Counted from the stretch's first letter, positions 4,424 to 26,816 are shown. The stretch is 26,880 bases of DNA from a virus (IMGVR_UViG_3300049201_000036:1-26880); one strand, 5' to 3'. Made by a program: numbers and translations. The notes: generated by a model from the sequence alone, not told the origin.

Positions 4424-4425
4424 GG

Positions 4426-4611
4426 TTAGGCATTAGCCGAAGCCCATGCCTCGGCCGCTTCCCTCGTCTCGAAGGGGATAAGGCTAATCGGCTGATGCTT
4501 CCACACTCCGTCTTTCCCTACGAAAGCGGCGCTAAACTTGCCTCGCTTGCCCGAGTAGTCGACGACGATGAAGCCGCCCGCGTAATCTTCGATTTGGATC
4601 TGGTCGCTCAT
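4426..4611 (-). CDS. Hypothetical protein (61 aa)
   Basis: MSDQIQIEDY...FETREAAEAWASANA fills the gap between HNH and terS. Confidence 0.6.
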   Translation of the reverse strand: MSDQIQIEDYAGGFIVVDYSGKRGKFSAAFVGKDGVWKHQPISLIPFETREAAEAWASANA

Positions 4612-4616
4612 GGTTT

Positions 4617-4949
4617 TTAGTCTTTCCGCGTCAGCCCCGCACGCCGGTCCGCGTGAGTCTTCACGGCGTGGCATCGGCGGCAGAGCGATTGATGGTTGTC
4701 TGGGTTGAAAAAGTTGGCGTCGGACTCGCCGTGAACCGGCGTGATGTGGTCGACCAACTCGGCGAGCGTTGACCGATTCACCGACAGGCACCGCGCGCAA
4801 AGCGGATTCTGCGCGAGGTGTAGCGCTGCCGCCTTCTGCCACCTCGCACCATACCCACGCGCAGCCGAAGACGGGCGACGGTCAACCCGCGCGACCGTTG
4901 GCGCGGTAATTCTCGGGCGGGCTCCTAAAGTTGGTGGACGTTGCGGCAT
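4617..4949 (-). CDS. HNH endonuclease (terminase-associated, HK97 gp74-like)
   Basis: SAARGYGARW, NPLCARC, VDHITPV and NHQSLCRRCHAVKT motifs; adjacent to the packaging genes. Confidence 0.92.
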   Translation of the reverse strand: MPQRPPTLGARPRITAPTVARVDRRPSSAARGYGARWQKAAALHLAQNPLCARCLSVNRSTLAELVDHITPVHGESDANFFNPDNHQSLCRRCHAVKTHADRRAGLTRKD

Positions 4950-5245
4950 TTTCGCGAGCGCTGCGACAGGGTGACGCAATAGCACAACCCACGACTAGTG
5001 CACAAGCAGAAACCCCCGCCCCTATCAAAACTCCCTGTGTTTTCTTGAAGACACCAAGTGTGGTCTAGGCTGTTGGTCCATAGGCTTTTACCCCTCCCCC
5101 GGGGTGCGATATTGATCTGTAATGGATACGTGAATACATTTAGACTCGACAGGCCTCCCGAAGGGTGAAAGCCGTATAGCATACGGTTGCGCGCCGACGC
5201 GAAGCGCAGGCGGCAAGGCGAGCGGGAGCGGTAAGCCTTTGCTGG

Positions 5246-5410
5246 TTATACGTGTGCCTTGGTTGCCGGCTCACATGTGGAGATCAGTGCCATCAGCCGG
5301 CCAATTTCCTCGTCCTTGCACTGAACCTTGGCATTTGCGATGTCTCGTTCCTTGCGGGCGTCGTCCAGCTTGGATTCGAGCTCGTTGGTTTCCCCGCCGG
5401 ATCGAACCGC
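5246..5410 (-). pseudogene. Probable frameshifted coiled-coil cassette gene remnant
   Basis: One frame reads ETNELESKLDDARKERDIANAKVQCKDEEIGRLMALISTCEPATKAHV* and stops in the GTTATAC box, but has an upstream in-frame stop and no clear start. Confidence 0.4.
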
Positions 5411-5412
5411 TC

Positions 5413-5532
5413 AGCGAACCAAGCGATACCGCTCTTGGGCTGATGCGTGCAAGTAGGTCCGCCGAGTGTGGCGACGATGTTGCGAGCGAGGCAGGCGGGG
5501 CAGTGGTCGGGTGCGATGCTTATTGGTTGAGC
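5413..5532 (+). repeat. Degenerate attC-like site (candidate)
   Basis: AGCGAAC-CAAGC at the left and GTTGAGC at the right, overlapping the end of ORF 5520-5816; arm pairing is weak. Confidence 0.35.
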
Positions 5533-5816
5533 GCGGATCGCTTCATGGCGCTTTCGATTTCGCTGAGTGCGGCGCGAATAGCCTGCTCGGCATCCAGCGG
5601 GGCGTGTGACCCCTTTGCGCCGACTGCTATCCATCCGGCCATCCAGTTGATGAGAGAGTAGGGGATTTCGTAGCGCAGTCCGGCGTAAGTCAGGATGGCC
5701 ACCGGCTCGGGCGGAACCGCAGGCCAAGCCGAAGGCCGCCACAAGAGAGCCGAATCAGGCACTGAGGAAGGAAGGCCGGTATCTGCCGGCGGTTGGGAGT
5801 TGGTTGGTGTTTCCAT
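5520..5816 (-). CDS. Hypothetical cassette protein whose N-terminus is encoded in the attC-like site
   Basis: 98 aa; N-terminus METPTNSQPPADTG is nearly the same as that of ORF 8120-8614. Confidence 0.65.
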   Translation of the reverse strand: METPTNSQPPADTGLPSSVPDSALLWRPSAWPAVPPEPVAILTYAGLRYEIPYSLINWMAGWIAVGAKGSHAPLDAEQAIRAALSEIESAMKRSALNQ

Positions 5817-5918
5817 GGTTGCGAGGATAGCTCATCCCGTGCGATGGCGACAACCCCGCAGGCGATGTTGTGCACGGTCTGATATACAAACGGCCGTTGG
5901 CTGAATCAGTGGTTAGGC
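5749..5918 (+). repeat. Degenerate attC-like site A
   Basis: GCCGAAT-CAGGC ... GTTAGGC; shares a 45-bp block (42/45) with site F. Confidence 0.55.
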
Positions 5919-6179
5919 GGAAATGGGTTCGGGGCGTTTCACGCCGGAGAATCCGCGGCGCTTGAGCTTCACTTCGACCTTGCCGACCGTCTTTCCGCGA
6001 CGGTCCTTGGCGGTCCAGTAGGCGTATCCGCCTTGCCACCACAGACTGTCGCCCTCGGATATGGAGCGAGCCTCCGCCGTGTTCTCGACGTAGATTGCGC
6101 AGGTGTCGCGCTTGTCCTGAGTGTTCACCCATACGCGATCACCGACGACGATTGTTTCGATTACTTTTCCACCGACCAT
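5913..6179 (-). CDS. Hypothetical cassette protein (beta-rich, 88 aa)
   Basis: AAGGA RBS upstream; TAA stop lies inside GTTAGGC; bounded by complementary R boxes. Confidence 0.8.
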   Translation of the reverse strand: MVGGKVIETIVVGDRVWVNTQDKRDTCAIYVENTAEARSISEGDSLWWQGGYAYWTAKDRRGKTVGKVEVKLKRRGFSGVKRPEPISA

Positions 6180-6225
6180 TTTAGTTCCTTTGTTGAGGTT
6201 GATTTTTACTCGAAAGATTTGAGGC

Positions 6226-6283
6226 GCCTAACCGGCCGCCGGTCGCAACGGGGCTACGCCCCGCGCGACGCCTCGGTGTTGGG
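6226..6283 (+). repeat. attC-like site B (58 bp)
   Basis: GCCTAAC-cggcc-gccggtcgc...gcgacgcc-tcggt-GTTGGGT, with one extra base in the left arm. Confidence 0.85.
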
Positions 6284-6478
6284 TAGAGACTGAAAGCGGT
6301 CCGCCGTTAACATCGTGACAAACGCGCATCCGGAGTCTGGCCCGGCTGCTTCGATGCCTTGGTCGGTCACGAAAATGGACATCTTGAGTTCCTCGCACCA
6401 AAACTGGATGCGATCAGGAGCGGCCACGCGGACGAATGTGAGGTTTTCGGTATGCTCGAATTTTTGTTTGGGAGTCAT
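6254..6478 (-). CDS. Hypothetical cassette protein (74 aa)
   Basis: Fills the B-C interval; C-terminus PNTEASRGA is read from site B. Confidence 0.7.
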   Translation of the reverse strand: MTPKQKFEHTENLTFVRVAAPDRIQFWCEELKMSIFVTDQGIEAAGPDSGCAFVTMLTADRFQSLPNTEASRGA

Positions 6479-6489
6479 GAGGGAAAATT

Positions 6490-6616
6490 GCCCAACCAGG
6501 CGGCGGGAAACAACGCTCGGGGCTCGCTGTGAACTATCCGGAATTTCAGGATAGTTGGCCGTTGTGTATTTCAGTTTTGGTTACGCTCGCGGGCGTTGCT
6601 GGTATCGGTGTTAGGC
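6490..6616 (+). repeat. attC-like site C (127 bp) with inner palindrome
   Basis: GCCCAAC-caggc...caacgctcggg / cgcgggcgttg...tcggt-GTTAGGC. Confidence 0.75.
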
Positions 6617-6822
6617 ATGATGATTTCCGCGTTGCCCGCGTAGGATGTCCCGGCATCCCGGTAGAACCACCAAGCGCCGCACGAGCTATCGACCGCGAAG
6701 CTATGGCCATCGGCGCAGCACACGGTCATCTCCATGTCGCCGGCTTTGTGCGCGATGTTGTCGGAGTGATTTCGCACCATGACTTTATCGCCGATCTGGA
6801 TGTTACTGAGTTTTGTTTTCAT
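6571..6822 (-). CDS. Hypothetical cassette protein (MKTKLSNIQIGDKV...)
   Basis: Fills the C-D interval; C-terminus is read from site C. Confidence 0.7.
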   Translation of the reverse strand: MKTKLSNIQIGDKVMVRNHSDNIAHKAGDMEMTVCCADGHSFAVDSSCGAWWFYRDAGTSYAGNAEIIMPNTDTSNARERNQN

Positions 6823-6834
6823 GGGAAATCTGGA

Positions 6835-6921
6835 GCCCAACTAGGCGGTAGAGAAACAACGCTCGATGCTCGCCGTGAGCTATCCGGAAATTCCGGATAG
6901 TTGGCTGGAACGGTGTTCACC
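6835..6921 (+). repeat. Truncated or hybrid attC-like site D
   Basis: The left ~73 bp repeat the left part of site C; the right arm does not pair; ends cggt-GTTCACC on the DnaC-like stop codon. Confidence 0.6.
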
Positions 6922-7636
6922 GCGCGAAGTCGACGACCTCGCAGATATCCAAGAGGCGGGTCAGGATCGCGTCTTGTCGGATGGCGTTGCGGTCGTTTGT
7001 GCCGGCGATTTCGGCCGAGCGGAGGTTGGTCGAGGCGATGAGCGGAAGGGCGAGCTCGCGGCGGATGTCGAGGAACTGCATAAACCAGCCCTCCGACCAA
7101 TCGGCGCGGGCTGAGAGCATGGCCTGCTGCCCGATGTCATCCATGATGAATACGGGGGCGTTGGCTTGGTCGCGCACCCATCGGCGGGCGTCGTCGGTGC
7201 CGTAGCGAACCTGCTCGTTGAGGCGGGCGAACCAGTCGGCCGCTTTGGCGTAGCGCACGGTGACGCGCTCGTCGATGGCGAGGCGGCGGTATAGATCCGC
7301 AATCGCGCGGGTCTTGCCGCGGCCGGACGGACCGGCTGCCAGGATGCCGCGCGGGGATAGCTGCCAGCCGCGAATGCGTGCGATTTGCGGGGCATACGGG
7401 GCAAGGTTGGGGTTGTCCCACTGGGTGGTGCGGTATGTCGGCCCGATGTCGCTTTCGTAGGCTGCCAGCCGAGCGGCCGCGACCTGCTCGGCGATCATGC
7501 GGGCGGCTCGGGCTTGGCGGCGGGTTGCGATCTCCTCGGGCGACTCGGCCGGTATGCTCGCCATGTCCACGCCGAGTTGGGCGGCGAGAACGGCGACAAA
7601 GTCGGCGACTGGGGCGGGAGATTCGCGGGTGCTCAT
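6917..7636 (-). CDS. DnaC/IstB-like AAA+ ATPase (helicase loader)
   Basis: Walker A GPSGRGKT, Walker B FIMDDIG, IASTNL sensor and ILTRL; start placed at ATG 7636. Confidence 0.88.
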   Translation of the reverse strand: MSTRESPAPVADFVAVLAAQLGVDMASIPAESPEEIATRRQARAARMIAEQVAAARLAAYESDIGPTYRTTQWDNPNLAPYAPQIARIRGWQLSPRGILAAGPSGRGKTRAIADLYRRLAIDERVTVRYAKAADWFARLNEQVRYGTDDARRWVRDQANAPVFIMDDIGQQAMLSARADWSEGWFMQFLDIRRELALPLIASTNLRSAEIAGTNDRNAIRQDAILTRLLDICEVVDFAR

Positions 7637-7673
7637 GTTATCCGACGCTGAGTCGCACAATCACTTGTTCAGC
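7631..7673 (+). repeat. attI-like site 1 (40-bp repeat copy 1 plus R box GTTCAGC)
   Basis: GCTCATGTTATCCGACGCTGAGTCGCACAATCACTTGTTC, 38/40 identical to 13005-13044; not a hairpin; heads array 2. Confidence 0.7.
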
Positions 7674-8058
7674 AAAGCGCAGCAGCTGCCTTTTCCAGCG
7701 CCTCGGCTTCTTCTAGTGCCCGGCGTGCTTCCGCGCGTTTTTCAGCCGCCTTTTCCGCTGGATTATCCGCCATCTGGCTTCGCAGGTGTGTGATAGCCGA
7801 CGAGACCGTTGCGTGCGTCATCGCAAGCGCCCGCCCCGGCCCATGCATGGTCCACGAGAGATCGTAGTATGGGTTTTCCTGCCACCGGTATTCGCGCAGA
7901 TTACAGTTTAGTTCGAGATCGGGGGTGAGCAGCCCAGCGGAGCGGCTCGCCGAAAGACGCGCAGCGACCCACATACAGACATCGGCTTCGGTGATGCGAT
8001 CGAGAATTGTCAGGTCGATTTGATCGGCCGGGATTTTGGTGTATTCGGACATGTGCAT
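7669..8058 (-). CDS. Hypothetical cassette protein (129 aa, helical C-terminus)
   Basis: TGA stop inside GTTCAGC; fills the attI-like 1 to E interval. Confidence 0.75.
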   Translation of the reverse strand: MHMSEYTKIPADQIDLTILDRITEADVCMWVAARLSASRSAGLLTPDLELNCNLREYRWQENPYYDLSWTMHGPGRALAMTHATVSSAITHLRSQMADNPAEKAAEKRAEARRALEEAEALEKAAAALC

Positions 8059-8083
8059 GTTTTTGTGAGGTTAAATTTTCGGA

Positions 8084-8189
8084 GCTGAACCAGGGCGCCA
8101 GAGCCAATGCGAATGGGCGTCAGGGGTTATTCGATAAGCGGCCAACGGACGGGCCTCGCCCGTCGCATGGCTCACCGCCGTTGTTCGAC
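8084..8189 (+). repeat. attC-like site E (106 bp)
   Basis: GCTGAAC...gagccaatgcgaatgggcg / cgcccgtcgcatggctc...GTTCGAC with extra bases in the left arm. Confidence 0.9.
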
Positions 8190-8614
8190 GAACCGGCGAG
8201 GGCCTGCTCGACGTCGAGGTGGAGCCACGAGTGCTCGTAGAGGATTCCGCCATGCTCCTTCGCCGCGGCGTGCACCTTCGCCAGAAGGTCCCGGTGCTGG
8301 ACGTTGCAGCGCGCGGCGAGACGGGCCTCGAAAGCACGGAGGTATCCCGGCGCGGCGAAGCCCTGTAGCCACGAGATCAGGGCGTTTTCGTTCGCCCCCT
8401 TGCCGTCCTCATCGTCGGGGATCACGCCGCCTGTCATGCGGCCGCGGTCCGGCTTATCGTGCCGGCGCTCGATCAGGAAGAGTGTCGTCTTCGGATCGTC
8501 GGCGAGATACCCGCGGAGCCATGCTCCGTCGGCATCCCACAAAATCGTCGAACCAGTCGCTGGAGGAGGAACGCCGGTAGCTGCCGGCGGTTGGGAGTTG
8601 GTTGGATTTTCCAT
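8120..8614 (-). CDS. Hypothetical cassette protein (164 aa)
   Basis: Starts inside site F and stops inside site E. Confidence 0.7.
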   Translation of the reverse strand: MENPTNSQPPAATGVPPPATGSTILWDADGAWLRGYLADDPKTTLFLIERRHDKPDRGRMTGGVIPDDEDGKGANENALISWLQGFAAPGYLRAFEARLAARCNVQHRDLLAKVHAAAKEHGGILYEHSWLHLDVEQALAGSSNNGGEPCDGRGPSVGRLSNNP

Positions 8615-8671
8615 GGTCAGAGAGAGGGCGAGGCATCGCCGCCACCGGCGTTCCTCAGCTGGTTGTTAGGC
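8547..8671 (+). repeat. attC-like site F (125 bp)
   Basis: GTCGAAC-cagtc-gctggag..gaggaacgccggtagc / gccaccggcgttcctcagc-tggtt-GTTAGGC. Confidence 0.9.
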
Positions 8672-8929
8672 ACGGAGCGATTGGCCCACTTGCCACGCAC
8701 GCCGGACGCTTGGCGGCAAGCTTGCCAGCTCCGACTCGTCGTAGTCGTCGAAGATGCCGATGCAGGCGTCTGCCGCGCGAAGCTTGGCAACTAGCTTGCG
8801 CACCTCTTCCGGCTCTCTCTTTAGGTCGTCGGCCGTGCAGACGGCGGCCAGCTTGGCGATCCGGCGGGGATGGGTCGCCGGAATGTTGTCCCGGCCAGGT
8901 GGCATTTTCGATGTATCTATGTTGTTCAT
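8666..8929 (-). CDS. Hypothetical cassette protein (87 aa)
   Basis: TAA stop in GTTAGGC; fills the F-G interval. Confidence 0.75.
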   Translation of the reverse strand: MNNIDTSKMPPGRDNIPATHPRRIAKLAAVCTADDLKREPEEVRKLVAKLRAADACIGIFDDYDESELASLPPSVRRAWQVGQSLRA

Positions 8930-8945
8930 ACGAAATAAAAAGGGT

Positions 8946-9002
8946 GCCTAACCTGACGCCTATCCCAACGAGCTGCGCTCGTGGGATGCCTCGGTGTTCA
9001 GC
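8946..9002 (+). repeat. attC-like site G (57 bp)
   Basis: GCCTAAC-ctgac-gcc(t)atccca(a)cgagc-tgc-gctcgtgggatgcc-tcggt-GTTCAGC; two extrahelical bases. Confidence 0.92.
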
Positions 9003-9243
9003 CGAGGTCGGCGAGGAGCGTCCGGCCATCGTTGGCCAGCGCGAAGCACGCACAGGTTTCGCCGGTCATGTGTCCGTCATCGTCCACGACTTCGCATTCG
9101 CTCACGTATTCGATGAGGCCCACGTCTTCGAGCTGCTTGCAGTGCTGGTAGGTGTCGCCTTTCGCGGCGAGCCCGTCGTGGCCCTGCGATTGAGCGCGGG
9201 CGATGTTTTTCAGAAGCGTGATGTCACTTGGATGTAGTTTCAT
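8998..9243 (-). CDS. Hypothetical cassette protein, winged-helix-like (81 aa)
   Basis: Pattern LLKNI...CKQLEDVGLIE...FALANDGRTLL resembles a wHTH; TGA stop in GTTCAGC. Confidence 0.7.
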   Translation of the reverse strand: MKLHPSDITLLKNIARAQSQGHDGLAAKGDTYQHCKQLEDVGLIEYVSECEVVDDDGHMTGETCACFALANDGRTLLADLG

Positions 9244-9258
9244 TTTCGTGGCGTTTTT

Positions 9259-9352
9259 GCTGAACTAGACGCCGATCCCAACACGGGCCGTCGGCTGCAT
9301 TTGTTATTCGTGGGCCGGAGAGAGGCCCGTGTTGGATGCCTCGGTGTTCTCC
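9259..9352 (+). repeat. attC-like site H (94 bp)
   Basis: GCTGAAC-tagac-gccgatcccaacacgggcc / ggcccgtgttggatgcc-tcggt-GTTCTCC. Confidence 0.92.
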
Positions 9353-10188
9353 TAAAAGCCGGTATCGAAGCAGCCGCAGGGCATTGGCCACGCGTCCACA
9401 TCCTCCAGCAGCTTCATTTGCGCCTTGTCGGCCTTCACCAGATCTTCCCATGACCAGTGCCGCCCGAGGCCCTTCACCGTCGTCGCGGCGGTGGCGTTTC
9501 TTTCCATCTCCACGGCTCGCGCGAAGAGGTCCGGGTTATTCTTCGCCAGCTCGATCACGTCCACCTTGCGCGAAGCCGGGCAGTAGAAGCATGCGCTCTT
9601 TGCCGGCGTGAAGCCGGCTTTGCTCACGACGCGTTCGCACCAGACGCGATCCCAGCCCCAGTGGACCAGCGGATACTGGACCACGAATTTCTTGTCGTCG
9701 TAGTCCTTGAGCCGATGAGTCTCATTCACGTCGTAGCCGATGAGCTTCACGACCTTCCCACCTGCGGCCCACGCATCGAGCGCGGGTTGCCACTTGGCGA
9801 GGTAGCGATTTTGCGGCCGCACCTTGTATTTGTCGGAGCAGGATCGGAAGCCGAACGCCAGAGAGGGCAGCGTGTTCGCGGCGCGCACTTCTGCTTCCAG
9901 CGTGGTCCGGCCGTCCTTCACGATGGTTACGGGCGGCAGGCCCTTCATCACGAGCCACGCCGAGAAGGCGTGCACGAATTCGTAGGTCTCGGGCCTCTCA
10001 CCTCCAGTGTCGGAGAAGAGGATTAGATCGGGGACGACGTGGCGCACCGCTGCCATTTCGATGAGCATGGCGGCGCTATTGGTTCCGCCCCCGAAAGAGA
10101 CCACGATGGGCCATTTTACGGAGGGAGAACCGGCCGCCTCAGACAAGCCGGCTACGGTCCGGCCGGCGGGAGCTTTGAGGGTATTCAT
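9352..10188 (-). CDS. PAPS-reductase-like / PP-loop adenine nucleotide alpha-hydrolase protein carried as a cassette
   Basis: IVVSFGGGTNSAAM PP-loop, FSDTGGERPETY, CSDKYK, YPL and KSACFYCP Cys motif. Confidence 0.85.
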   Translation of the reverse strand: MNTLKAPAGRTVAGLSEAAGSPSVKWPIVVSFGGGTNSAAMLIEMAAVRHVVPDLILFSDTGGERPETYEFVHAFSAWLVMKGLPPVTIVKDGRTTLEAEVRAANTLPSLAFGFRSCSDKYKVRPQNRYLAKWQPALDAWAAGGKVVKLIGYDVNETHRLKDYDDKKFVVQYPLVHWGWDRVWCERVVSKAGFTPAKSACFYCPASRKVDVIELAKNNPDLFARAVEMERNATAATTVKGLGRHWSWEDLVKADKAQMKLLEDVDAWPMPCGCFDTGF

Positions 10189-10245
10189 TGGTTGGTTACG
10201 CTGTCGTTAGATTAGGGGGCCGGCTGTCTGGCCTCGGTGTTGTGC
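10124..10245 (+). repeat. attC-like site I (122 bp)
   Basis: GGAGAAC-cggcc-gcc(t)cagaca(a)gccggc / gccggctgtctggcc-tcggt-GTTGTGC; contains one start codon and one stop codon. Confidence 0.9.
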
Positions 10246-10421
10246 GGAAGATAAAGGGTGGTCCAGTAGTGGCCGCATTCCGCATGCTGAAGCGCTGTAA
10301 GTGTCTCCCATCCTTCGTTGAAGAGACGTGCCATTATCGCGATACCGGCTCGCGCGCTGCCGTGCGTGAAGATGATCTCCATCGTGCGGGCTGGGAGTTT
10401 ATCTTGTTCGGTGAGTTGCAT
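10212..10421 (-). CDS. Hypothetical cassette protein (69 aa)
   Basis: Fills the I-J interval; C-terminus HNTEARQPAP is read from site I. Confidence 0.65.
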   Translation of the reverse strand: MQLTEQDKLPARTMEIIFTHGSARAGIAIMARLFNEGWETLTALQHAECGHYWTTLYLPHNTEARQPAP

Positions 10422-10438
10422 GCTGAGTTAAGTTTTCA

Positions 10439-10498
10439 GCCTAACCAGACGGCCTGTCGCAACGTGGCTACGCCCCGCGCGACGCCTCGGTGTTAAAA
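10439..10498 (+). repeat. attC-like site J (60 bp), sister of site B
   Basis: GCCTAAC...gtcgc...gcgacgcctcggt-GTTAAAA; its 29 bp ending in GTT are identical to site B. Confidence 0.85.
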
Positions 10499-11434
10499 CG
10501 CATTCCTGCGCTGCATGATCGGGTCGTCGGGCGACATGCCCGGGTATTCGCGGGACGTGCCGTGGCCGTGGGCTTTCGCGATGTCGCAGCGGGCCCAGTG
10601 CCGGGCCAAGGCCGGCGCAGTCAGGGCGGCGCCGTCGAAGTGCGTGTGGTAGTTCGCGGCACGTCGGGCGATTTCGAACGGCGTCAGGTCGGGCGAGACC
10701 TTGACGATCTTGGCAAGGGACACGCCGACAGCTCGTGCGGTGTCGGCGGTCAGCTGGGACGGCGCGCCGTCTGTGGCCTCGGCAAGGGCGTCGAAGAGCG
10801 GGTTGCGGTCGCGGGTTCTGGGCGGCGTTGCGGCGGGCGTGGCAGGGGCAGGGGCAGGCGGCGGAGGCGGGGTTGGCTCAGGTGCGGCGGGAGGCACCGC
10901 GAAAAGCTCTGCGGCCTCGCCCCCATCCGGTGCCCCGGCAGGGGCGGCGGAAGATTGATTCCCTTTCTCCTTCCTTTCCCCTTCTCCTTCCCTTTCCCCT
11001 TCCGCTTTCGCAAAAATAACCGACGTTGGTTTCTCTTGGGTTATGCCGTGGGTTATCTCGTGGGGGCCAACGTTGGGTCCCACGTTGGCCCCGGTATTGG
11101 TTTTTTCAGGACGGCCACCACGCAGGCCGTTCTTGCGGGCAACCTCGCGCCGAGTCTTCACCTCGTTCTCTTTTTCTCCGGGGTAAAAGCCGACGATCAG
11201 GTCGTCGCCATCCCACTTCCAGAGGCCGCAAGAGACCGAGACCTCGCGCAGGGTGACGCGGGCGAGCTGCTGCCACTGGCGATCCTTCCAAGTGCGTCCG
11301 CCGACGATGCGGCCGGAGTTCTCTTGGCCGATACAGAAGCGGAGCAGGCAGAGCCAGGTCGAGCGCTCGACGGGTGATGAGCCGACGAACTCGGGGGAGT
11401 CGAGGGTGGATGTGTGAAGATTAAGCCAGTCCAT
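10493..11434 (-). CDS. Phage replication initiator-like protein
   Basis: MDWLNLH N-domain, RKNGLRGGRP, repeat-rich linker, EGEREGEGE tract and helical C-domain ending LARHW; upstream of the DnaC-like gene in the operon. Confidence 0.75.
   Translation of the reverse strand: MDWLNLHTSTLDSPEFVGSSPVERSTWLCLLRFCIGQENSGRIVGGRTWKDRQWQQLARVTLREVSVSCGLWKWDGDDLIVGFYPGEKENEVKTRREVARKNGLRGGRPEKTNTGANVGPNVGPHEITHGITQEKPTSVIFAKAEGEREGEGERKEKGNQSSAAPAGAPDGGEAAELFAVPPAAPEPTPPPPPAPAPATPAATPPRTRDRNPLFDALAEATDGAPSQLTADTARAVGVSLAKIVKVSPDLTPFEIARRAANYHTHFDGAALTAPALARHWARCDIAKAHGHGTSREYPGMSPDDPIMQRRNAF
10960..11092. promoter_or_regulatory. Candidate replication origin inside the initiator gene
   Basis: ~12-bp phased repeats TGGGTTATGCCG / TGGGTTATCTCG, an 11-bp inverted repeat (11063-11073 / 11082-11092) and an adjacent purine/pyrimidine-skewed tract, as in lambdoid O genes. 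Confidence 0.55.
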
Positions 11435-11688
11435 GGCTAGAAAAGAGACTCCGCGCCCCGCGTCCATTTTTGGAAAGACCCTCGAAAGACAAAGGGCGTG
11501 GACGCGGTGGCGCGGGTAATTGGGTGGTGTCTTTCATTTGAACTGAGACTTTTCCGGCGCTTTCCACGCACCGAACCTAAGCCTGAATCGGTCGTAGAAA
11601 TCGGCGCGTGAACTTCAAGCAAGTATTGGTGATATGAATACGTATGTGCGGATTCACTCCGCCATTACGAAAACTTACGGCGGTTAGG

Positions 11689-11898
11689 TTATTTTGAGGC
11701 GATGCAGTCGCCGTCGGTGTTGTAGCCGTCAAAGGCAAAGAAGCAGACAGGGGCGAGTGTGCATCCGTCGCATGTGAACTCGGAAACCTTGCGGCCCTCC
11801 TGCCTCTCGCGCTCCAGTGATTCGTGGCGAAGCTCCGCAAGTTCGTCCGGAGTGCGGGGCGTCTTTAGGTCGGCGAACCTTTCTTCGTCTATGCTCAT
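11689..11898 (-). CDS. Small Cys-rich hypothetical protein
   Basis: CDGC-x4-C...C motif; ATGA overlap with the upstream ORF. Confidence 0.7.
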   Translation of the reverse strand: MSIDEERFADLKTPRTPDELAELRHESLERERQEGRKVSEFTCDGCTLAPVCFFAFDGYNTDGDCIASK

Positions 11899-12251
11899 GT
11901 CGGCATTTGAGCGTCTGCGCGGCCGGCGTGGTAGGCATCCACGACAGCGGACGCCTTGCCGACTTCGTGAGCGATGAGCGCGGGCGACGTTGAGCCGTGG
12001 TGTGGGGCGGCCTTTTCAGTGATCCACCACAGGACATGGTCACAGTCGCCGCTTTCCGTCAGTGCATCCTTCACATCCTGAGGCGCGCCCAACTTATCCA
12101 GCGCGGCAAGCAGGGTGTTGGTTAGGTTGCTGAGAAGGACGATGGTCGTTTTGCTAATCGGTGCCGGAGTAAATCCGGCGTCATAAAGTCCAGCATTTAG
12201 GACTCTCTGGGTTTCGGGGGCATGCGGTCCTAGTTTGTTTGTGGTGTTCAT
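11895..12251 (-). CDS. Hypothetical protein (118 aa)
   Basis: ATGA overlaps at both ends. Confidence 0.65.
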   Translation of the reverse strand: MNTTNKLGPHAPETQRVLNAGLYDAGFTPAPISKTTIVLLSNLTNTLLAALDKLGAPQDVKDALTESGDCDHVLWWITEKAAPHHGSTSPALIAHEVGKASAVVDAYHAGRADAQMPT

Positions 12252-12538
12252 GGGTGGTTTGGAAAAAACGTCGGCAACTCAGTGCACGGCGGCGTGAGGT
12301 AAGCATCTCGCCACGCCTCCACGTCCCATTGGTAGAGCGGAAGCGCTAGGTCCACGGTGCGGAGTTCGTCGCGGTCCTCACGGATCATTGGAATCCGCGG
12401 AAGCAGGATCGTCGCAATGATAGGCGCTGGCCTACGGCGTGGCTTGCTGACCTTCGGTGCGGCCGGCTTCCGCTTTTCAACGTGGCGGCCATACCAGTGC
12501 GCCGTGACCTTGCGGCCTTGATAGATGATGCGCCTCAT
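12248..12538 (-). CDS. Hypothetical basic protein (96 aa)
   Basis: Operon position and stop/start overlap. Confidence 0.6.
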   Translation of the reverse strand: MRRIIYQGRKVTAHWYGRHVEKRKPAAPKVSKPRRRPAPIIATILLPRIPMIREDRDELRTVDLALPLYQWDVEAWRDAYLTPPCTELPTFFPNHP

Positions 12539-12551
12539 AATCGGGTCGGTG

Positions 12552-13010
12552 TTACGGGAAAATTTCCTGCGTGGCCCAAGTTCCCGCGCGCCTGTCGCGC
12601 CAAACGAGAACGAAGCGAATGAAGGGAAAGAGGCGGGCTGCGACCTTGAGCTTCACCGCGGCGTCGTCGCGCATGTGGCCCTTGACCTCGTAGGCGGTGA
12701 GCCGCGATGAGCCGGCGGGGTCAGCGACCATGAAATCCGGATTGTAGCGCACGCCGTTGCCGAGCTTCAGGGCCATCGGCTCGCGTTCGATCCACGCGCC
12801 CGGATGCGTGGCCTTGAGGTGCGCAAAAAACAGCGCCTCGGTTTTGTTCATGCCGGCGCCGGACTGCCGGAGCATCACGCGGCCCTCCGCCGGGTGGTCT
12901 GGCCGAACCGCGACCGAATCGGCCGCTCGCGCACCGCCACCCAGCGTCGCCGCGATCTGCGCGCGGTATCGCTCGGGCAACGACGCGGGGTCTATTCGGG
13001 TCCGGCTCAT
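12552..13010 (-). CDS. PD-(D/E)XK nuclease, DUF1064-like
   Basis: MNKTEA, RYNPDF, AYEVKG and VKLKVAA motifs; start placed at ATG 13010. Confidence 0.8.
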   Translation of the reverse strand: MSRTRIDPASLPERYRAQIAATLGGGARAADSVAVRPDHPAEGRVMLRQSGAGMNKTEALFFAHLKATHPGAWIEREPMALKLGNGVRYNPDFMVADPAGSSRLTAYEVKGHMRDDAAVKLKVAARLFPFIRFVLVWRDRRAGTWATQEIFP

Positions 13011-13049
13011 GTTATCCGACGCTGTGTCGCTCAATCACTTGTTCGCTAC
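13005..13049 (+). repeat. attI-like site 2 (40-bp repeat copy 2 plus R box GTTCGCTAC)
   Basis: GCTCATGTTATCCGACGCTGTGTCGCTCAATCACTTGTTC; heads array 3. Confidence 0.7.
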
Positions 13050-13210
13050 TCGAGTTTCGTCACCAGATGGATGACTTCGGGTGTCGATGAGTTGTCGTAG
13101 GTGGCGACGCGCTGGATTGGCACGGACACTTCGCCGCAGACCCATTCGACCACTACTTCGGGGTCGCCGGGGAATGTATTCAGAATCTGGATGAGTTCGT
13201 TTTTAGTCAT
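13046..13210 (-). CDS. Hypothetical cassette protein (MTKNELIQILNTFPGDPEV...)
   Basis: Common phage small-protein N-terminal pattern; fills the cassette. Confidence 0.7.
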   Translation of the reverse strand: MTKNELIQILNTFPGDPEVVVEWVCGEVSVPIQRVATYDNSSTPEVIHLVTKLE

Positions 13211-13228
13211 AGGTTTCGTTGCGTTTGT

Positions 13229-13342
13229 AGCGAACCAAACGGTGGAGAAGCAACGCTCGGGGCTCAGGGGTTTTCGTGGCTTGGTCCAACGCTCGGGGCT
13301 CGCTGATCGCTCGCCCGAGCGTGTCTCACCTCGGTGTTCAGC
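13229..13342 (+). repeat. attC-like site M (114 bp)
   Basis: AGCGAAC-caaac-ggtggaga..caacgctcggg / cccgagcgtgtctcacc-tcggt-GTTCAGC. Confidence 0.88.
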
Positions 13343-13569
13343 TTGAAGATTCGCCGCCACATGGAGGGCCTAGATTTTTCATTCACGCGCACCGCGATCC
13401 TGCGCCGAAGCTCCGGGGCGTTGGCGTTCCGTATCTCATCGAGTTGCTTATTAGCCCAGTTCTCGCAGTCGGAGCACACGTCCTTGACGGTCGCCGTTTG
13501 GTAGCACGAGCGCAGGTCTGCCATGCTGCTGGCGGGTTGTTGTTTGCCGCATATATCGCATTTAGCCAT
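13264..13569 (-). CDS. Zinc-finger-like cassette protein
   Basis: CDIC...CSDC motifs; C-terminus is read from site M. Confidence 0.75.
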   Translation of the reverse strand: MAKCDICGKQQPASSMADLRSCYQTATVKDVCSDCENWANKQLDEIRNANAPELRRRIAVRVNEKSRPSMWRRIFKLNTEVRHARASDQRAPSVGPSHENP

Positions 13570-13595
13570 TTTGGTATTCGGTTGGTGGTTACGGA

Positions 13596-13689
13596 GCTGA
13601 ACCAGGCGTCGCAGAGAACCCGGCTAAGCGTGGCAGGTAGGCGTAGGGTTTAGGTGGTCGGGCCGGGTTCTCTGGCCTCGGTGTTCAGC
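13596..13689 (+). repeat. attC-like site N (94 bp)
   Basis: GCTGAAC-caggc-gtc(g)cagagaacccggc / gccgggttctctggcc-tcggt-GTTCAGC. Confidence 0.93.
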
Positions 13690-13881
13690 CTATAGCTCAG
13701 GGAGCGCGGCCACCTGCTCCTCGGTCATTTGTCGGGCTTCGATGGTGATGCTCTCGGCCTCGGGGTTTTCGTTGAGCCAGTTGGTGACGCCCGCGATGAC
13801 GGCGTTTTTGTCGTCGGTGACAGTGCGCGAAACTCCGTCCGCCATCTCGGCGGGGAGGACATAGTAGGTTTTCGTTTTCAT
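13690..13881 (-). CDS. Hypothetical acidic cassette protein (63 aa)
   Basis: MKTKTYYV...MTEEQVAALPEL fills the N-O interval. Confidence 0.7.
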   Translation of the reverse strand: MKTKTYYVLPAEMADGVSRTVTDDKNAVIAGVTNWLNENPEAESITIEARQMTEEQVAALPEL

Positions 13882-13902
13882 GGGATATTGTTGGTGTTCG
13901 AG

Positions 13903-13962
13903 GCTGAACCGGGCGGCGGAGGACGACGGCGCTAAGCGCCGCGCCTCACCTCGGTGTTCAGA
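13903..13962 (+). repeat. attC-like site O (60 bp)
   Basis: GCTGAAC-cgggc-ggcggaggacgacggcgct-a-agcgccgcgcctcacc-tcggt-GTTCAGA. Confidence 0.9.
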
Positions 13963-17910: not shown

Positions 17911-18207
17911 TTATTCGGGGCGCTGCGCCTCATGGTTTCCTTTCTGCTGAGTTTTGCCCAAAATGGTTTCACCGCCGGCCGCGTCGGCGCGGGGACCCTT
18001 CCCCTGGCTACGACGGTCGCCGCTCTCCTTTTCAGCGGCCAAGCCGGGCGCGGTCACGACGGTGAAAGTTGACGGCGGGACGATCCCGCCAAAGTTGCGA
18101 CGGCGGCTGAACCGGCGAAACGGCCGGCCGGGATGCAGCGGAACAGGCGCGCTCACGTCGCCTCCGCTCGCTGCTACGTCCGCTAGGTATTCGCCGAAGT
18201 CGCTCAT
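17911..18207 (-). CDS. Hypothetical protein (98 aa)
   Basis: ATGA overlap with the methyltransferase stop; no motifs recognised. Confidence 0.45.
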   Translation of the reverse strand: MSDFGEYLADVAASGGDVSAPVPLHPGRPFRRFSRRRNFGGIVPPSTFTVVTAPGLAAEKESGDRRSQGKGPRADAAGGETILGKTQQKGNHEAQRPE

Positions 18208-19202
18208 GTGGTCACGCGGTCGCCGCTGGCTTCGGTGAACGCTTGGATGAATTCCGCGGCGACTTGTGGAACGATAGCGTTGCCGTAACCGCGCAGTCGC
18301 ACCACGCGGGCGGGAACCCCATGAGCCAGCGGGAATGTGCCGGATTCAACGCGCCGCGTTTTTCCATCGGCGCAGGGGATGAGGTCGAATTGCGACCAGC
18401 TAGTAATACCTGAGATTCCCCCGGTTTTACCTGACACAGTGCCGCCTGCCGCGGGAGTTGGTCGAGCCGCAGACGCGTCGAGCCGTCCGGGTTGGTCCCC
18501 GTCGTGCTCATCCCCGGCGTGTCCTTCCAGTCTCTCGCCGACGGAGTCATCCATCCTACGAGCGAGGAGCACCCCGTCGCGGACTTCATGCTCCCATCCT
18601 TCGGAAGTTGGGCCCGGGCATCCGCAGTCGGCGAAGTCGGTGCCGCACAGGGGGCAGTTTCCATCTGCGTCGCACTCGTGATCGAAGACGACGCGCTGCC
18701 AGCCAATGCCGGCGCCCCAAAATAATCGCTGACGGATGTGCGGCGCGCCGACGCCCGCAGCGCACAAATCCGCCGCCCCGACGGCGTAACCCGCGTCTTC
18801 CAAGTCAGCGCATACTCCATCGAGCCAGCCGAGCCCAGCCGAGCTCGCAACCTGCTCGCCAAAGACGACTGGAGGCCGACACTCGCGGATGAGCCCAAAG
18901 AAGGTTGGCCAGAGGTGGCGGGGGTCGGCTCCGCCGAGACCTTTGCCAGCGTCAGAGAATGGCTGGCAGGGACAGGAGCCAGTCCACACAGGTCGAGCTG
19001 CTGGCCATCCTGCGAGTTGCAGGGCGAGACTCCATCCGCCGATGCCGGCGAAGAAGTGACATTGGATGTATCCAGAAAGTTCATTCGGTTTGATTTCGGT
19101 TATGCTGCGTTCGTCCACGTCGCCCGGCGGAATCAGACCTTGGCGGATCAGCTCGCGGAGCCATGCGGCGGCCTTCGGGTCGAACTCGTTGTAGTAGTTC
19201 AC
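18204..19202 (-). CDS. DNA (cytosine-5)-methyltransferase, large polypeptide
   Basis: Motif I FFAGIGG, IV GSCPCQPFS, VI GEQV, VIII PHIRQRLF and X LRGYGNAIVPQVA; GTG start at 19202 overlaps the upstream TGA. Confidence 0.92.
   Translation of the reverse strand: MNYYNEFDPKAAAWLRELIRQGLIPPGDVDERSITEIKPNELSGYIQCHFFAGIGGWSLALQLAGWPAARPVWTGSCPCQPFSDAGKGLGGADPRHLWPTFFGLIRECRPPVVFGEQVASSAGLGWLDGVCADLEDAGYAVGAADLCAAGVGAPHIRQRLFWGAGIGWQRVVFDHECDADGNCPLCGTDFADCGCPGPTSEGWEHEVRDGVLLARRMDDSVGERLEGHAGDEHDGDQPGRLDASAARPTPAAGGTVSGKTGGISGITSWSQFDLIPCADGKTRRVESGTFPLAHGVPARVVRLRGYGNAIVPQVAAEFIQAFTEASGDRVTT
18212..19084 (-). CDS. Alternative-frame polypeptide nested in the methyltransferase, carrying a motif IX-like segment (true start uncertain)
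   Basis: 290 open codons in a second frame with GWMTPSARDWKD, LDQLPRQA and GALNPAHSRWLMGFPPAW. Confidence 0.7.
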   Translation of the reverse strand: MNFLDTSNVTSSPASADGVSPCNSQDGQQLDLCGLAPVPASHSLTLAKVSAEPTPATSGQPSLGSSASVGLQSSLASRLRARLGSAGSMEYALTWKTRVTPSGRRICALRASARRTSVSDYFGAPALAGSASSSITSATQMETAPCAAPTSPTADARAQLPKDGSMKSATGCSSLVGWMTPSARDWKDTPGMSTTGTNPDGSTRLRLDQLPRQAALCQVKPGESQVLLAGRNSTSSPAPMEKRGALNPAHSRWLMGFPPAWCDCAVTATLSFHKSPRNSSKRSPKPAATA

Positions 19203-19378
19203 GGCTGGTCCTCCTCTTCGCCCTCGGTGTTGTCCGGGTAGCAGAAGGCGCAGATGACAAAGTAAACCCCGCCCATGACCCCGAACGCGAGGAACAGCAG
19301 CACGAGCAGCCAGCCGGCAAACGCCTCGGGGCTCAGCGCGCGAACCCAGTCGCACAGCGCGATGAAGGCGTCACGCAT
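19199..19378 (-). CDS. Small single-pass membrane protein (59 aa)
   Basis: Not in the ORF track; manual translation MRDAFIALCDWVRALSPEAFAGWLLVLLFLAFGVMGGVYFVICAFCYPDNTEGEEEDQP, with GGAGG RBS. Confidence 0.7.
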   Translation of the reverse strand: MRDAFIALCDWVRALSPEAFAGWLLVLLFLAFGVMGGVYFVICAFCYPDNTEGEEEDQP

Positions 19379-25416: not shown

Positions 25417-26631
25417 TCAAACCGACGGCACCTTGGCCAGCTCTGCCGCGGCCTGATCGAGTTCCGTGTGCGTGTAGCCCCGATTTACCGCCTCGTCCTC
25501 GTGGCCGATCAGCCGCATCCGCCAGTCCTCGCCGACGCCCGCCGCAGCAAGCCACGAAGAGAGCGAGTGCCTGAGAGAGTGGAGCGAATATTCGGCGAGT
25601 CGCCGGCCGAGCCCTCGCCCCTCTCCGCTGGCGAACTCCTGCACGATCCCGGCACGCGGCAGGATGCCCCGGCGGAACTCGTTCGAGACGTGCCGGCGCT
25701 GCATGGCTGCGATATGCGGCATGACCTTGCCACGCCTGTCCGCCTCGGGCGTCCGCGCCAGATGCGCAGCAAGCGAGGCATGGAGCGGAATCCAGTGCTC
25801 GTCCCCGTTCTTCGCGCGCTCGAGCATGATCCGGCGCCGGGTCAAATCGACCTGCGCCCATGAAAGCTGCGCCGCCTCCTGTTGCCGCGCGCCGGTGTAG
25901 CCGCACACCATTACGAGGGTCTGCCAGTCGGGCGGTAGCGTGAAGTTTTTGCCGCGCCCTCCGGCGCCCGGTCGCACGTAGTCCGGCGCCGTCACCCTCA
26001 CCAATTCACGGAATTGCTCAAACGTGAACGCACGTCGCTTCTGCGCGGTTCGCTTCTCGCCCTTCACGTTGATCCCGCGGGCGGGGTTGACGGAGAGAAG
26101 GCCGGTCGTGTGCGCCTCGGCGAATGCCTGAGCAAGCACCATCAGCGCCTTGTTTACCGTGCGCGCCGACTTACCCGCCGCCCCCTCAGCGTCGCGGAAC
26201 TCGACCACGCGCGCGCCCGTGATCTCGCCAAGCGGGCCGCCGGCGCGAGGGCCGAGGAAGGCAAGGAAGCCGTCAACGATGCTGCTGTAGCGGACGTAGG
26301 AGGCGGGCTTGAGCGACTTTTCCCGCCCGCGCAGCCAGCCCCGCAAGTAGTCGTCAGTCTTGACCGTCGCCCCCGTGCTGACGCCCACGATGGCCTCGAT
26401 CTCAGACAGGAAGCGCCGGGCCGCGCTTTCACCCCATCGCTTCTCCGCTGCTGCCAGAGCCGCGCGCTCGTAGCTGATCGCGAGTTGCAGCGCCTTGGTC
26501 TTGTCGTCCGTGCCGGCGGATCTTTGGACGCGACGAAACACGGGCTTTCCCTTGTCGTCGATCTGCCCGGTCGGCATCTTGTAGCACGCGAACCAGTGAG
26601 AAGTGCCTGCGCGAGATCGAACGGAAGCCAT
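25417..26631 (-). CDS. int: Phage integrase (tyrosine recombinase)
   Basis: Catalytic R (YTGARQQE), K (AKNG), HSLRH, IGH and Y (RGYTH), with N-terminal arm-binding and core-binding regions; start placed at ATG 26631. Confidence 0.93.
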   Translation of the reverse strand: MASVRSRAGTSHWFACYKMPTGQIDDKGKPVFRRVQRSAGTDDKTKALQLAISYERAALAAAEKRWGESAARRFLSEIEAIVGVSTGATVKTDDYLRGWLRGREKSLKPASYVRYSSIVDGFLAFLGPRAGGPLGEITGARVVEFRDAEGAAGKSARTVNKALMVLAQAFAEAHTTGLLSVNPARGINVKGEKRTAQKRRAFTFEQFRELVRVTAPDYVRPGAGGRGKNFTLPPDWQTLVMVCGYTGARQQEAAQLSWAQVDLTRRRIMLERAKNGDEHWIPLHASLAAHLARTPEADRRGKVMPHIAAMQRRHVSNEFRRGILPRAGIVQEFASGEGRGLGRRLAEYSLHSLRHSLSSWLAAAGVGEDWRMRLIGHEDEAVNRGYTHTELDQAAAELAKVPSV

Positions 26632-26816
26632 GACAACAGGACTGACCACAGCCGCCCATTCCAAGTCAACTGACCTTTGCTGCCACCCTAGGTAAGTTGC
26701 TTAAAAATAGCGACTTGCGGACTCCCTACAGCTGCACCACTCTCCACACAACCCGCTAGCCTCCAGAGGTTAGCGGGTTTTTAGTGGCTGAGACTGACAA
26801 CGGAACCGACAACAGG
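26631..26816 (+). other. Attachment site, probably attP: tRNA 3'-end core with arm-like repeats on both sides
   Basis: Core GACT-CCCTA-CAGCTGC-A-CCA (26720-26739); repeats TGACAACAGG, TGACCACAGC, TGACAACGGA and CGACAACAGG at 26631, 26643, 26795 and 26807. Confidence 0.75.
26750..26782 (+). terminator. Intrinsic terminator following the tRNA 3' fragment
   Basis: AACCCGCTAGCCT-ccag-AGGTTAGCGGGTT-TTT. Confidence 0.8.

Follow-up and report, generated by a model that had tools for sequence, protein, structure and literature searches.

How does a phage come to carry, among the genes of its replication region, a dozen small gene units whose ends match each other as those of integron cassettes do, and whose genes all point the wrong way for an integron? 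The question is raised by IMGVR_UViG_3300049201_000036:1-26880, a 26.9-kb fragment of a phage genome that was analysed as the entire record ("the window", to which all coordinates refer unless another record is named). Its 12 cassettes form three arrays, A, B and C (3+6+3 cassettes), which interleave with core replication genes. In integrons, the integrase IntI recombines an attC site's folded bottom strand with a double-stranded attI site via circular cassettes. The reading we favour, and consider very probable, is that the window holds three integron-type arrays within an early phage operon, with likely attI sites at their heads and with inverted open reading frames (ORFs), and that an IntI-family integrase, likely acting in trans, would excise the cassettes as circles and insert them at G|TT.

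Complementarity of the cassette ends

The cassettes are delimited by the crossover G, found at 5912, 6278 and 6610 with a closing G at 6915 (array A), at 7667, 8183, 8665, 8996, 9346 and 10239 with a closing G at 10492 (array B), and at 13041, 13336 and 13683 with a closing G at 13956 (array C). A first-pass annotation of this DNA had listed nine pairs in which the R'' box of a site matches the R' box at the other end of the same cassette; all nine are exact reverse complements and lie where they had been placed. Our recount gave the figures already claimed, with nine of 12 cassettes exact over at least 7 bp (runs of 7–9 bp) and the others matching at 6/7, 6/7 and 5/7. The R'' box had also been said to fit the far-end R' usually better than its own, and it does so in ten cassettes, with a tie in two. 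Of 48 positions in all at the four variable bases, R'' agrees at 44 with the far-end R' and at 25 with the R' of its own site in the array. Shuffling the R' boxes among cassettes, the control that had been suggested, gave a mean of 26.7 ± 3.2; the score of 44 was reached in 5 of 1,000,000 permutations, and nine exact pairs in 17 of 1,000,000. When the window was pooled with a related phage (G001) and a provirus (G004), the end match was 102/108 as compared to 62.6 by permutation, a value reached in none of 300,000 permutations. The second suggested control, folding of in-silico circles (with the AAC/GTT pairs of the R boxes forced), showed the circular site to be more stable in ten cassettes and equally stable in two.

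Such matches are the known footprint of circles, but complementarity does not demonstrate circles, and the earlier wording that it shows circular intermediates was overstated. Bouvier 2009 (PMC2727003) places the crossover in R' and describes an R''/R' pairing that extends to 9–11 nt for most cassettes, and circular excision and chimeric sites are described in Cury 2016 (PMC4889954). The end-matching signature is real, but it is textbook integron biology.

That the cassettes are mobile units and not terminators or plain hairpins, as had also been inferred, is supported by the attC anatomy, the permutation result and the homology breakpoints at GTT described below. The sites are indeed palindromic and mostly lie between genes, as would be expected of intergenic hairpins or terminators with chance end matches. 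This explanation is extremely unlikely, being refuted by the permutations and the breakpoints; moreover, of 16 terminator-like matches in the window none coincides with an attC on the strand that is transcribed (−), five ORFs read on into the neighbouring site, and two begin inside one. The first-pass annotation is upheld in part: the signature and the mobile-unit inference stand, but the inverted ORFs, the attI-like heads, the phage setting and the integrase-bearing relatives went unmentioned.

Site anatomy and gene polarity

All 12 sites possess an R'' box ending in AAC and an R' box starting with GTT, and are 57–127 bp long (criterion 57–142 nt); the RRRY part of the R boxes fits the consensus loosely. 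The L''/L' repeat, with an unpaired base on the R'' arm, is in register in nine of the 12 sites (eight identified by an attC scanner, plus that at 13903), one base out of register in another and broken in two. We take the + strand to be the attC top strand, with the hairpin at the right end of each cassette, because the unpaired bases are on the left arm of the + strand and because the scanner, which demands this geometry, returned eight sites on + and one on −. With 12 same-strand attC between 6226 and 13962 and no IntI on the contig, the window classifies as a cluster of attC sites lacking an integron integrase (CALIN), defined by at least two same-strand attC within 4 kb without a neighbouring integron integrase. 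The attC interiors at 6500–6560, 6845–6905 and 13245–13300 have repeated blocks in common, as if they were mosaics of each other.

Each of the 12 window cassettes has its longest ATG ORF on the − strand, against the attC polarity and co-directed with the core phage genes, so that the canonical polarity, an ORF on the top strand reading towards its attC, was found in 0/12. Orientation was assigned by this criterion of the longest ATG ORF, used in the same way for phages and for controls, in place of a rule that left 25 of 49 control cassettes uncalled. The R' box contains the stop codon of four cassette ORFs, and another three end no more than 10 nt from it; five run on into the neighbouring site, and two begin inside their own attC. 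The stops of two core genes, the helicase loader (at 6915) and the replication gene (at 10492), also overlap G|TT.

The polarity could have been misread: were the + strand the folded substrate, with crossover at the AAC end, the ORFs would be canonical, with their stops in R''. Four cassette stops do lie in TAAC/TGAAC boxes like a canonical R'', the extra base on + is often G, and the cores shared between cassettes (see below) are bounded at both ends. We nevertheless hold this to be very unlikely, as extra bases on the 5' arm of the + strand represent the top-strand geometry given in the attC description of PMC2727003, each array has a hairpin-less site on its left and a full attC on its right, the hairpin-less site abuts intI in integrase-bearing phages, as an attI should, and the scanner returns the canonical answer on controls.

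attI-like array heads

Each of the three arrays is headed by a simple site with no hairpin partner. Head A (5900..5918, +) has the L box GCTGAAT, 5 bp and the crossover G|TT at 5912, and its best attC-like pairing scores 8.5, compared to at least 13 for the eight scanner-found sites. Head B (7637..7669, +) is a 33-bp site with the L box GCACAAT, 5 bp and G|TT at 7667; head C (13011..13043, +) is a second copy of it (L box GCTCAAT, G|TT at 13041). The recurrence of this 33-bp site gave 0 matches in 100 shuffles, and each copy lies directly before the ATG of a core gene. AAT-N5-GTT is present at 3/3 heads and at 5 of the 637 GTT in the window, a count to be read with the motif having been noticed post hoc and two of the heads being copies. 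The Shewanella attI of Qi 2023 (PMC9892861) ends likewise in AAT, 5 bp, GTT, as does the attI2 minimum quoted from PMC12901181, and a near copy of the 33-bp head precedes an array in the record L198. We read the heads as candidate attI sites of the simple kind; they are not next to an intI here.

A scan of a genome collection also gave head-motif matches in Bradyrhizobium and Roseateles, which cover the first 20 bases only, without L box and GTT, and were taken as chance. Paired similar heads occur in other phages: at 5821 and 11864 in L169, of which one abuts intI and the other is far downstream, at 36883 and 38076 in G001, and in L163 (two heads), and attI copying seems to be recurrent. On a contig of metagenome run X3, at 13010–13043, a variant head unit of ~30 bp stands in tandem just before the head, suggesting duplication between its two GTT.

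Turnover at GTT

The related phage G001 keeps heads A and C, followed by 4 and 3 different cassettes, while its replication gene and loader have no array between them. Its homology to the window stops at GTT 7669 and 13043 and resumes at G 10492, exactly where the replication gene, 99.7% identical, begins to match. Three contigs of runs X3 and X4 diverge directly after GTT, two at 13043 and one, from X4, at 13685, which is inside array C at the boundary of its second and third cassettes. In the provirus G004, the resolvase-like gene is likewise preceded by an array, of 8 cassettes led by an AAT-N5-GTT head. In G001 and G004 together, 12 of 15 end matches are exact, and the longest ATG ORF is inverted in 7/7 and 8/8 cassettes, respectively. 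A loose attC pattern returned 56 loci, of which only L076 is a new array and three are the window's twin or G001; a pattern made from the 6226/10439 core had no match in viral contigs. The record L002 looks identical to the window and is not independent of it.

The cassettes may be frozen relics of an old capture, which ordinary phage mosaic recombination now shifts in blocks only, no integrase being active in the lineage. This would agree with the absence of intI from the contig, with the two broken attC and with the long contigs of runs X1 and X2, which have the same array without letter differences; in addition, many other homology breaks between the window and G001 fall at gene ends unrelated to attC. 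We consider it unlikely nonetheless, for G001, despite its 99.7% identity over the replication gene, lacks all 12 cassettes and departs from the window precisely at GTT, a GTT is also where three more contigs diverge, and 9/12 end pairs are still perfect. The two broken attC and the imperfect cassettes (A2, A3 and B6) are all distal to their heads, a suggestive pattern that fits insertion at the head.

Integrase-bearing relatives

Among relatives of the replication protein (80 loci kept of 182 viral), 44 attC lie on the strand opposite to the replication gene and 6 on the same strand, with at least two opposite-strand attC in 9 of the 80 loci. A full-length IntI-like protein is encoded in 4 of 14 site-bearing related records. 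The one in L169 scores 247 bits (cut-off 265), and its alignment with IntI4 of V. cholerae (PDB 2a3v, E 5e-42) spans the integron-specific insert. Its gene is two genes upstream of the replication gene, with an attI-like site ~50 bp before intI, from which ten attC lead away in classical geometry, with ORFs that point back to intI. The 120 best of 260 relatives of this integrase are on contigs of at most 71 kb, one being named from a Verrucomicrobiota metagenome-assembled genome.

In a survey of this integrase family (80 loci kept of 242 viral relatives of the L169 integrase), 149 of 169 attC lie upstream of intI on the opposite strand, the classical arrangement, and 20 lie elsewhere; at least one classically placed attC is present in 46 of the 55 loci that have 2 kb upstream. 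Cassettes were inverted in 77 cases and forward in 15; with near-copies removed, the 82 distinct matching-end cassettes comprised 69 inverted, 12 forward and 1 tie, and 38 of the 69 inverted ORFs begin inside attC. In the controls, taken from 20 bacterial integrons, 43 of 48 cassettes had matching ends; 30 of these were forward and 11 inverted, with 2 ties. Eight of the 11 inverted ones are from L107, which has a repeated 198-bp cassette, and without it there are 24 forward vs 3 inverted. The published phages M16-3 and TJE1 were scored as forward by the same scanner. Not every locus of the survey is shown to be phage, because of 20 checked (60 of 70 ORFs) only nine carry virion or packaging genes downstream, with primase only in one, only integrases or ParB in five and no match in five.

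In a quick tree (62 viral and 20 control rows; no chromosomal Verrucomicrobiota IntI), the viral integrases fall in at least two places. A group of 11 viral integrases is found among the control enzymes and, because its loci mostly have inverted cassettes too, inversion seems to be tied to the viral setting rather more than to a single lineage of the enzyme. Exceptions to the usual arrangement are L242 and L243, where three attC each lie upstream on the intI strand; their ORFs are still inverted relative to attC. In L293 (KX853513, Virus Rctr41k), an IntI-like gene annotated as xerD (4680–5678) is situated among co-oriented small genes, with one opposite-strand attC at 8415–8545.

Proposed mechanism and points against it

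Starting from what is observed, namely the site anatomy, the gene polarity, the turnover at GTT and the integrase-bearing relatives, we envisage the following process. The folded − strand would be the recombination substrate, and the heads would be detached copies of attI. An integrase acting in trans, for which the missing part of the genome, a co-resident phage and the host chromosome are candidate sources, would release cassettes in circular form and join them in at G|TT. New cassettes would enter at the head, and older ones would drift away and decay. Phage transcription through the array towards the head would express the cassettes from the far end and, in integrase-bearing phages, also the integrase.

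Several results weigh against this reading. An integron integrase (IntI, TIGR02249) was not found on the 26.9-kb contig, nor in 10 of the 14 related records, three of these being at 91–100% completeness, and the four IntI-like matches score 193–255 bits, below the curated 265. No attC was detected within up to 10 kb in 61 of the 80 replication-protein phages. None of the 12 window cassettes was found whole in another phage, and G001 has none of them. Circle or excision junctions were not seen in the assembled contigs of six runs (X1–X6), of 17 covering parts of the window, these data being contigs only, which drop rare forms; one weak 877-bp skip (11674–12552), whose shorter side spans 29 letters, does not fall on a G|TT. 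The ORFs were called by length, not expression. Furthermore, the first extrahelical base on the top strand is G in 5, T in 2 and C in 1 of 8 sites, so that the bottom strand has mostly C or A and not the conserved G; the top-strand base is C in 50 of 64 bacterial control sites, and in the phage IntI loci G in 68 and C in 47 of 135. This atypical base does not rule out function, as a G>C change is reported in PMC2727003 to have only a 1.3-fold effect. Finally, by a weight matrix built from 33 distinct attI that adjoin phage integrases, the heads come only 4, 10 and 25 among the 637 GTT and the attC ends 20–482, one attC end being at 20, which amounts to moderate support for the heads as attI.

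This moderate matrix support, together with the overlap of core-gene stops with G|TT at 6915 and 10492, would also suit a spill-over from host integrons, in which a host integrase drops cassettes into chance secondary GTT sites, only the rare ones with a fitting direction are kept, and the heads are not true attI. PMC4889954 discusses CALINs arising by secondary-site insertion and reports integrons in Verrucomicrobia. Judged from the phage sequences, such a process is improbable here, since the same 33-bp head is present twice in the window and in G001, with a near copy heading the L198 array, phages carry their own intI beside such heads, and the 38 of 69 inverted ORFs that begin in attC are not explained by a flipped or rare host cassette.

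Comparison with known integrons

In several respects the window conforms to the integron cassettes described in PMC2727003 and PMC4889954: R''-L''...L'-R' hairpins of 57–127 bp whose extra bases are on the R''-L'' arm, G|TT as the crossover point, an R''/R' complementarity of extended length and one ORF per cassette. It differs from them in that the ORFs face the head and not the attC, some begin in attC, most sites have another base than G in the first extrahelical position, and the phage operon would provide for expression. Clusters of attC in phages have been reported before, with 21 cases in 10,705 phage genomes (Qi 2023, PMC9892861). In one of these, the Shewanella prophage M16-3, an attI copy heads an integrase-less array in addition to a complete integron, and attC clusters likewise occur in the window. 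However, M16-3 and the Tetrasphaera phage TJE1 have canonical ORF polarity, unlike the three all-inverted arrays interleaved with replication genes found here, and the window's relatives encode divergent integrases within the operon, unlike the M16-3/TJE1 setting.

In the reverse integrons of Treponema (PMC7691350; PMC13323075), it is the integrase that is flipped, with the ORF stop in R'', whereas the window and its relatives keep the classical intI-attI-attC geometry and have flipped ORFs. An intI on the same strand as the attC, as in reverse integrons, is not the rule among the relatives, where 149/169 sites are opposite-strand and upstream. Short attI fragments recur in arrays as the Delta-attI or duplicated attI of integrons of classes 1 and 2 (PMC12901181), as attI-like sites do here, but the window copies head separate arrays before core phage genes, away from an integrase.

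The system is a phage variant of integrons, new in its inverted ORFs, its end signature being already known. No description of phage arrays with inverted ORFs was found in the open literature, the search having mostly left out subscription journals, and the supplement of Qi 2023 could contain inverted cases. The usual view is that integrons belong to bacteria and are acquired by phages occasionally, yet in the wide range of uncultured phages considered here the machinery forms part of the phage operon itself. The reversed gene polarity calls for another expression logic, in which the promoter would be most distant from the newest cassette and transcription would reach the integrase last.

Possible origin of the cassettes

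The mechanism that creates cassettes is unknown according to Cury 2016 (PMC4889954), and the arrays offer material bearing on it. Eleven pairs of attC cores that are at least 85% identical serve non-homologous cassettes; the R'' differs in 6 of these 11 pairs, and 17 of the 22 R'' exactly match their own far end. The core of cassette B3 is 97% identical to two G001 cores serving other ORFs, and one attC-encoded N-terminus starts three otherwise unrelated ORFs (8120–8614, 5520–5816 and a G001 cassette ORF). Genes resembling phosphoadenosine phosphosulphate (PAPS) reductase are found in cassettes of the window, of L131 (a 41% homologue of that in B5) and of G004; distant homologues occur in L145 and L193, where the scan found no opposite-strand attC. 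As a proposal on mechanism only, the shared cores would fit a joining of cores to phage genes.

We can sketch, tentatively and with more doubt than confidence, phages as cassette factories: a free attC core, often with a start codon, might be joined before a gene whose 3' end gives the GTT, the R'' would be fitted to that end, and phage integrases would shuffle the products among the attI copies of the operon during lytic replication. If true, this would make it possible to follow the formation of cassettes, a problem that has not been solved. Near-identical cores on unrelated ORFs, and the shared N-terminus, are concrete substrates for testing cassette origin, and the sites and the candidate integrase are suited to the standard attC x attI assay. 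Another idea, that a canonical ORF was turned between complementary ends, was rejected, as none of 7 homologous pairs among 126 cassettes is oppositely oriented, which is a weak test.

The cassettes and their genes

All 12 cassettes are given here on the + strand, with their ORFs on −. In array A, cassette A1 (5913..6278) has an 88-aa ORF (5913–6179) that stops in R', an attC at 6226–6284 with an 8-bp end match, and a core that is 95% like that of B6. A2 (6279..6610; ORF 6254–6478, 74 aa) and A3 (6611..6915; ORF 6571–6822, 83 aa) have decayed attC (6490–6616 and 6835–6921) with L''/L' unpaired and a 6/7 end match each. The terminal site of A3 has decayed further in G001, where the GTT reads GCT. 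The interiors of both broken sites contain a strong inner palindrome.

In array B, B1 (7668..8183) encodes 129 aa (7669–8058, stop in R') and has its attC at 8084–8189; the 164-aa ORF of B2 (8184..8665; ORF 8120–8614) begins in the attC at 8547–8671, which has a 9-bp end match. B3 (8666..8996; ORF 8666–8929, 87 aa; attC 8946–9002, 9-bp end match) and B4 (8997..9346; ORF 8998–9243, 81 aa; attC 9259–9352) both have the ORF stop in R'. B5 (9347..10239) carries the PAPS-reductase-like ORF (9352–10188, 278 aa), which begins in the attC at 10124–10245 and matches PF01507, phrog_424 and PADLOC SspD (E 5e-17). B6 (10240..10492; ORF 10212–10421, 69 aa) has an attC at 10439–10498 with L'' one base out of register and a 5/7 end match. 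The array C cassettes are C1 (13042..13336; ORF 13046–13210, 54 aa; attC 13229–13342, 9-bp end match), C2 (13337..13683; ORF 13264–13569, 101 aa; attC 13596–13689, 8-bp end match) and C3 (13684..13956; ORF 13690–13881, 63 aa; attC 13903–13962, 9-bp end match).

Searches of the 12 cassette ORFs against Pfam, PHROG and PADLOC named only the PAPS-reductase-like ORF, other matches being marginal (E > 0.002), and a cassette promoter was not found in the window. The B5 ORF resembles both SspD of DNA phosphorothioation systems and phage PAPS reductases, and may act in modifying DNA or in counter-defence. Two unrelated cassettes, at 9243–9265 and at L001 1347–1374, resemble each other in the leader that separates R'' from the start codon. 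Left of head A, a further ORF (5520..5816, −) begins in an orphan attC left arm (~5748–5790); its first 18 residues are common to one G001 cassette ORF only (89%), the ORF is absent at this position in G001, and it is probably a cassette remnant.

Phage setting

The window is part of a temperate tailed phage. Pfam and PHROG searches identified a portal protein, terminases, an HNH nuclease, a DnaC-like loader, a resolvase-like gene, ERF, a YqaJ exonuclease, methyltransferases and a tyrosine integrase. The last (25417..26664, −; phrog_1, E 1e-45) is a phage integrase and not an integron integrase, scoring 18 bits with TIGR02249 (cut-off 265). Three core genes, all on the − strand, adjoin the arrays. 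The DnaC-like helicase loader (6917..7636; phrog_3277/50) has a stop that overlaps G|TT at 6915 and an ATG that abuts head B, and the Holliday-junction-resolvase-like gene (12552..13010; phrog_190, E 5e-9) has an ATG that abuts head C. Between them is a probable replication initiator (10493..11431), so named from its position, whose TAA stop overlaps G|TT at 10492; Pfam, PHROG and NCBIfam gave no match to it. The host is probably a member of the Verrucomicrobiota, and within these probably of the Opitutaceae, because the loader's best named relative is a protein of Opitutaceae bacterium TAV5 (53%) and the best phage match of the tyrosine integrase is an Akkermansia phage. The two metagenome runs covering nearly all of the window are from soil, and one of them may be where it came from. 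Rfam gave zero matches and a Sigma-70 promoter scan 0 sites in the window.

Four other places differ from G001 or show unusual structure. Upstream of the replication gene, an imperfect inverted repeat (11573–11690) is not scored as attC; G001 homology stops at 11680, and the weak joint seen in run X4 begins at 11674. A lone attC right-end motif (CCTCGGT, then GTT) lies at a G001 homology break at 19223–19235; a left arm was not found. A small gene without an attC (4426–4620), flanked by the small terminase and the HNH gene, is replaced in G001 by another gene directly after a GTTAGGC box at 4425. At 18204–19355, a block with no bounding attC, two overlapping methyltransferase-like frames (phrog_363 and phrog_1008) share the same DNA, and the block is missing there in G001.

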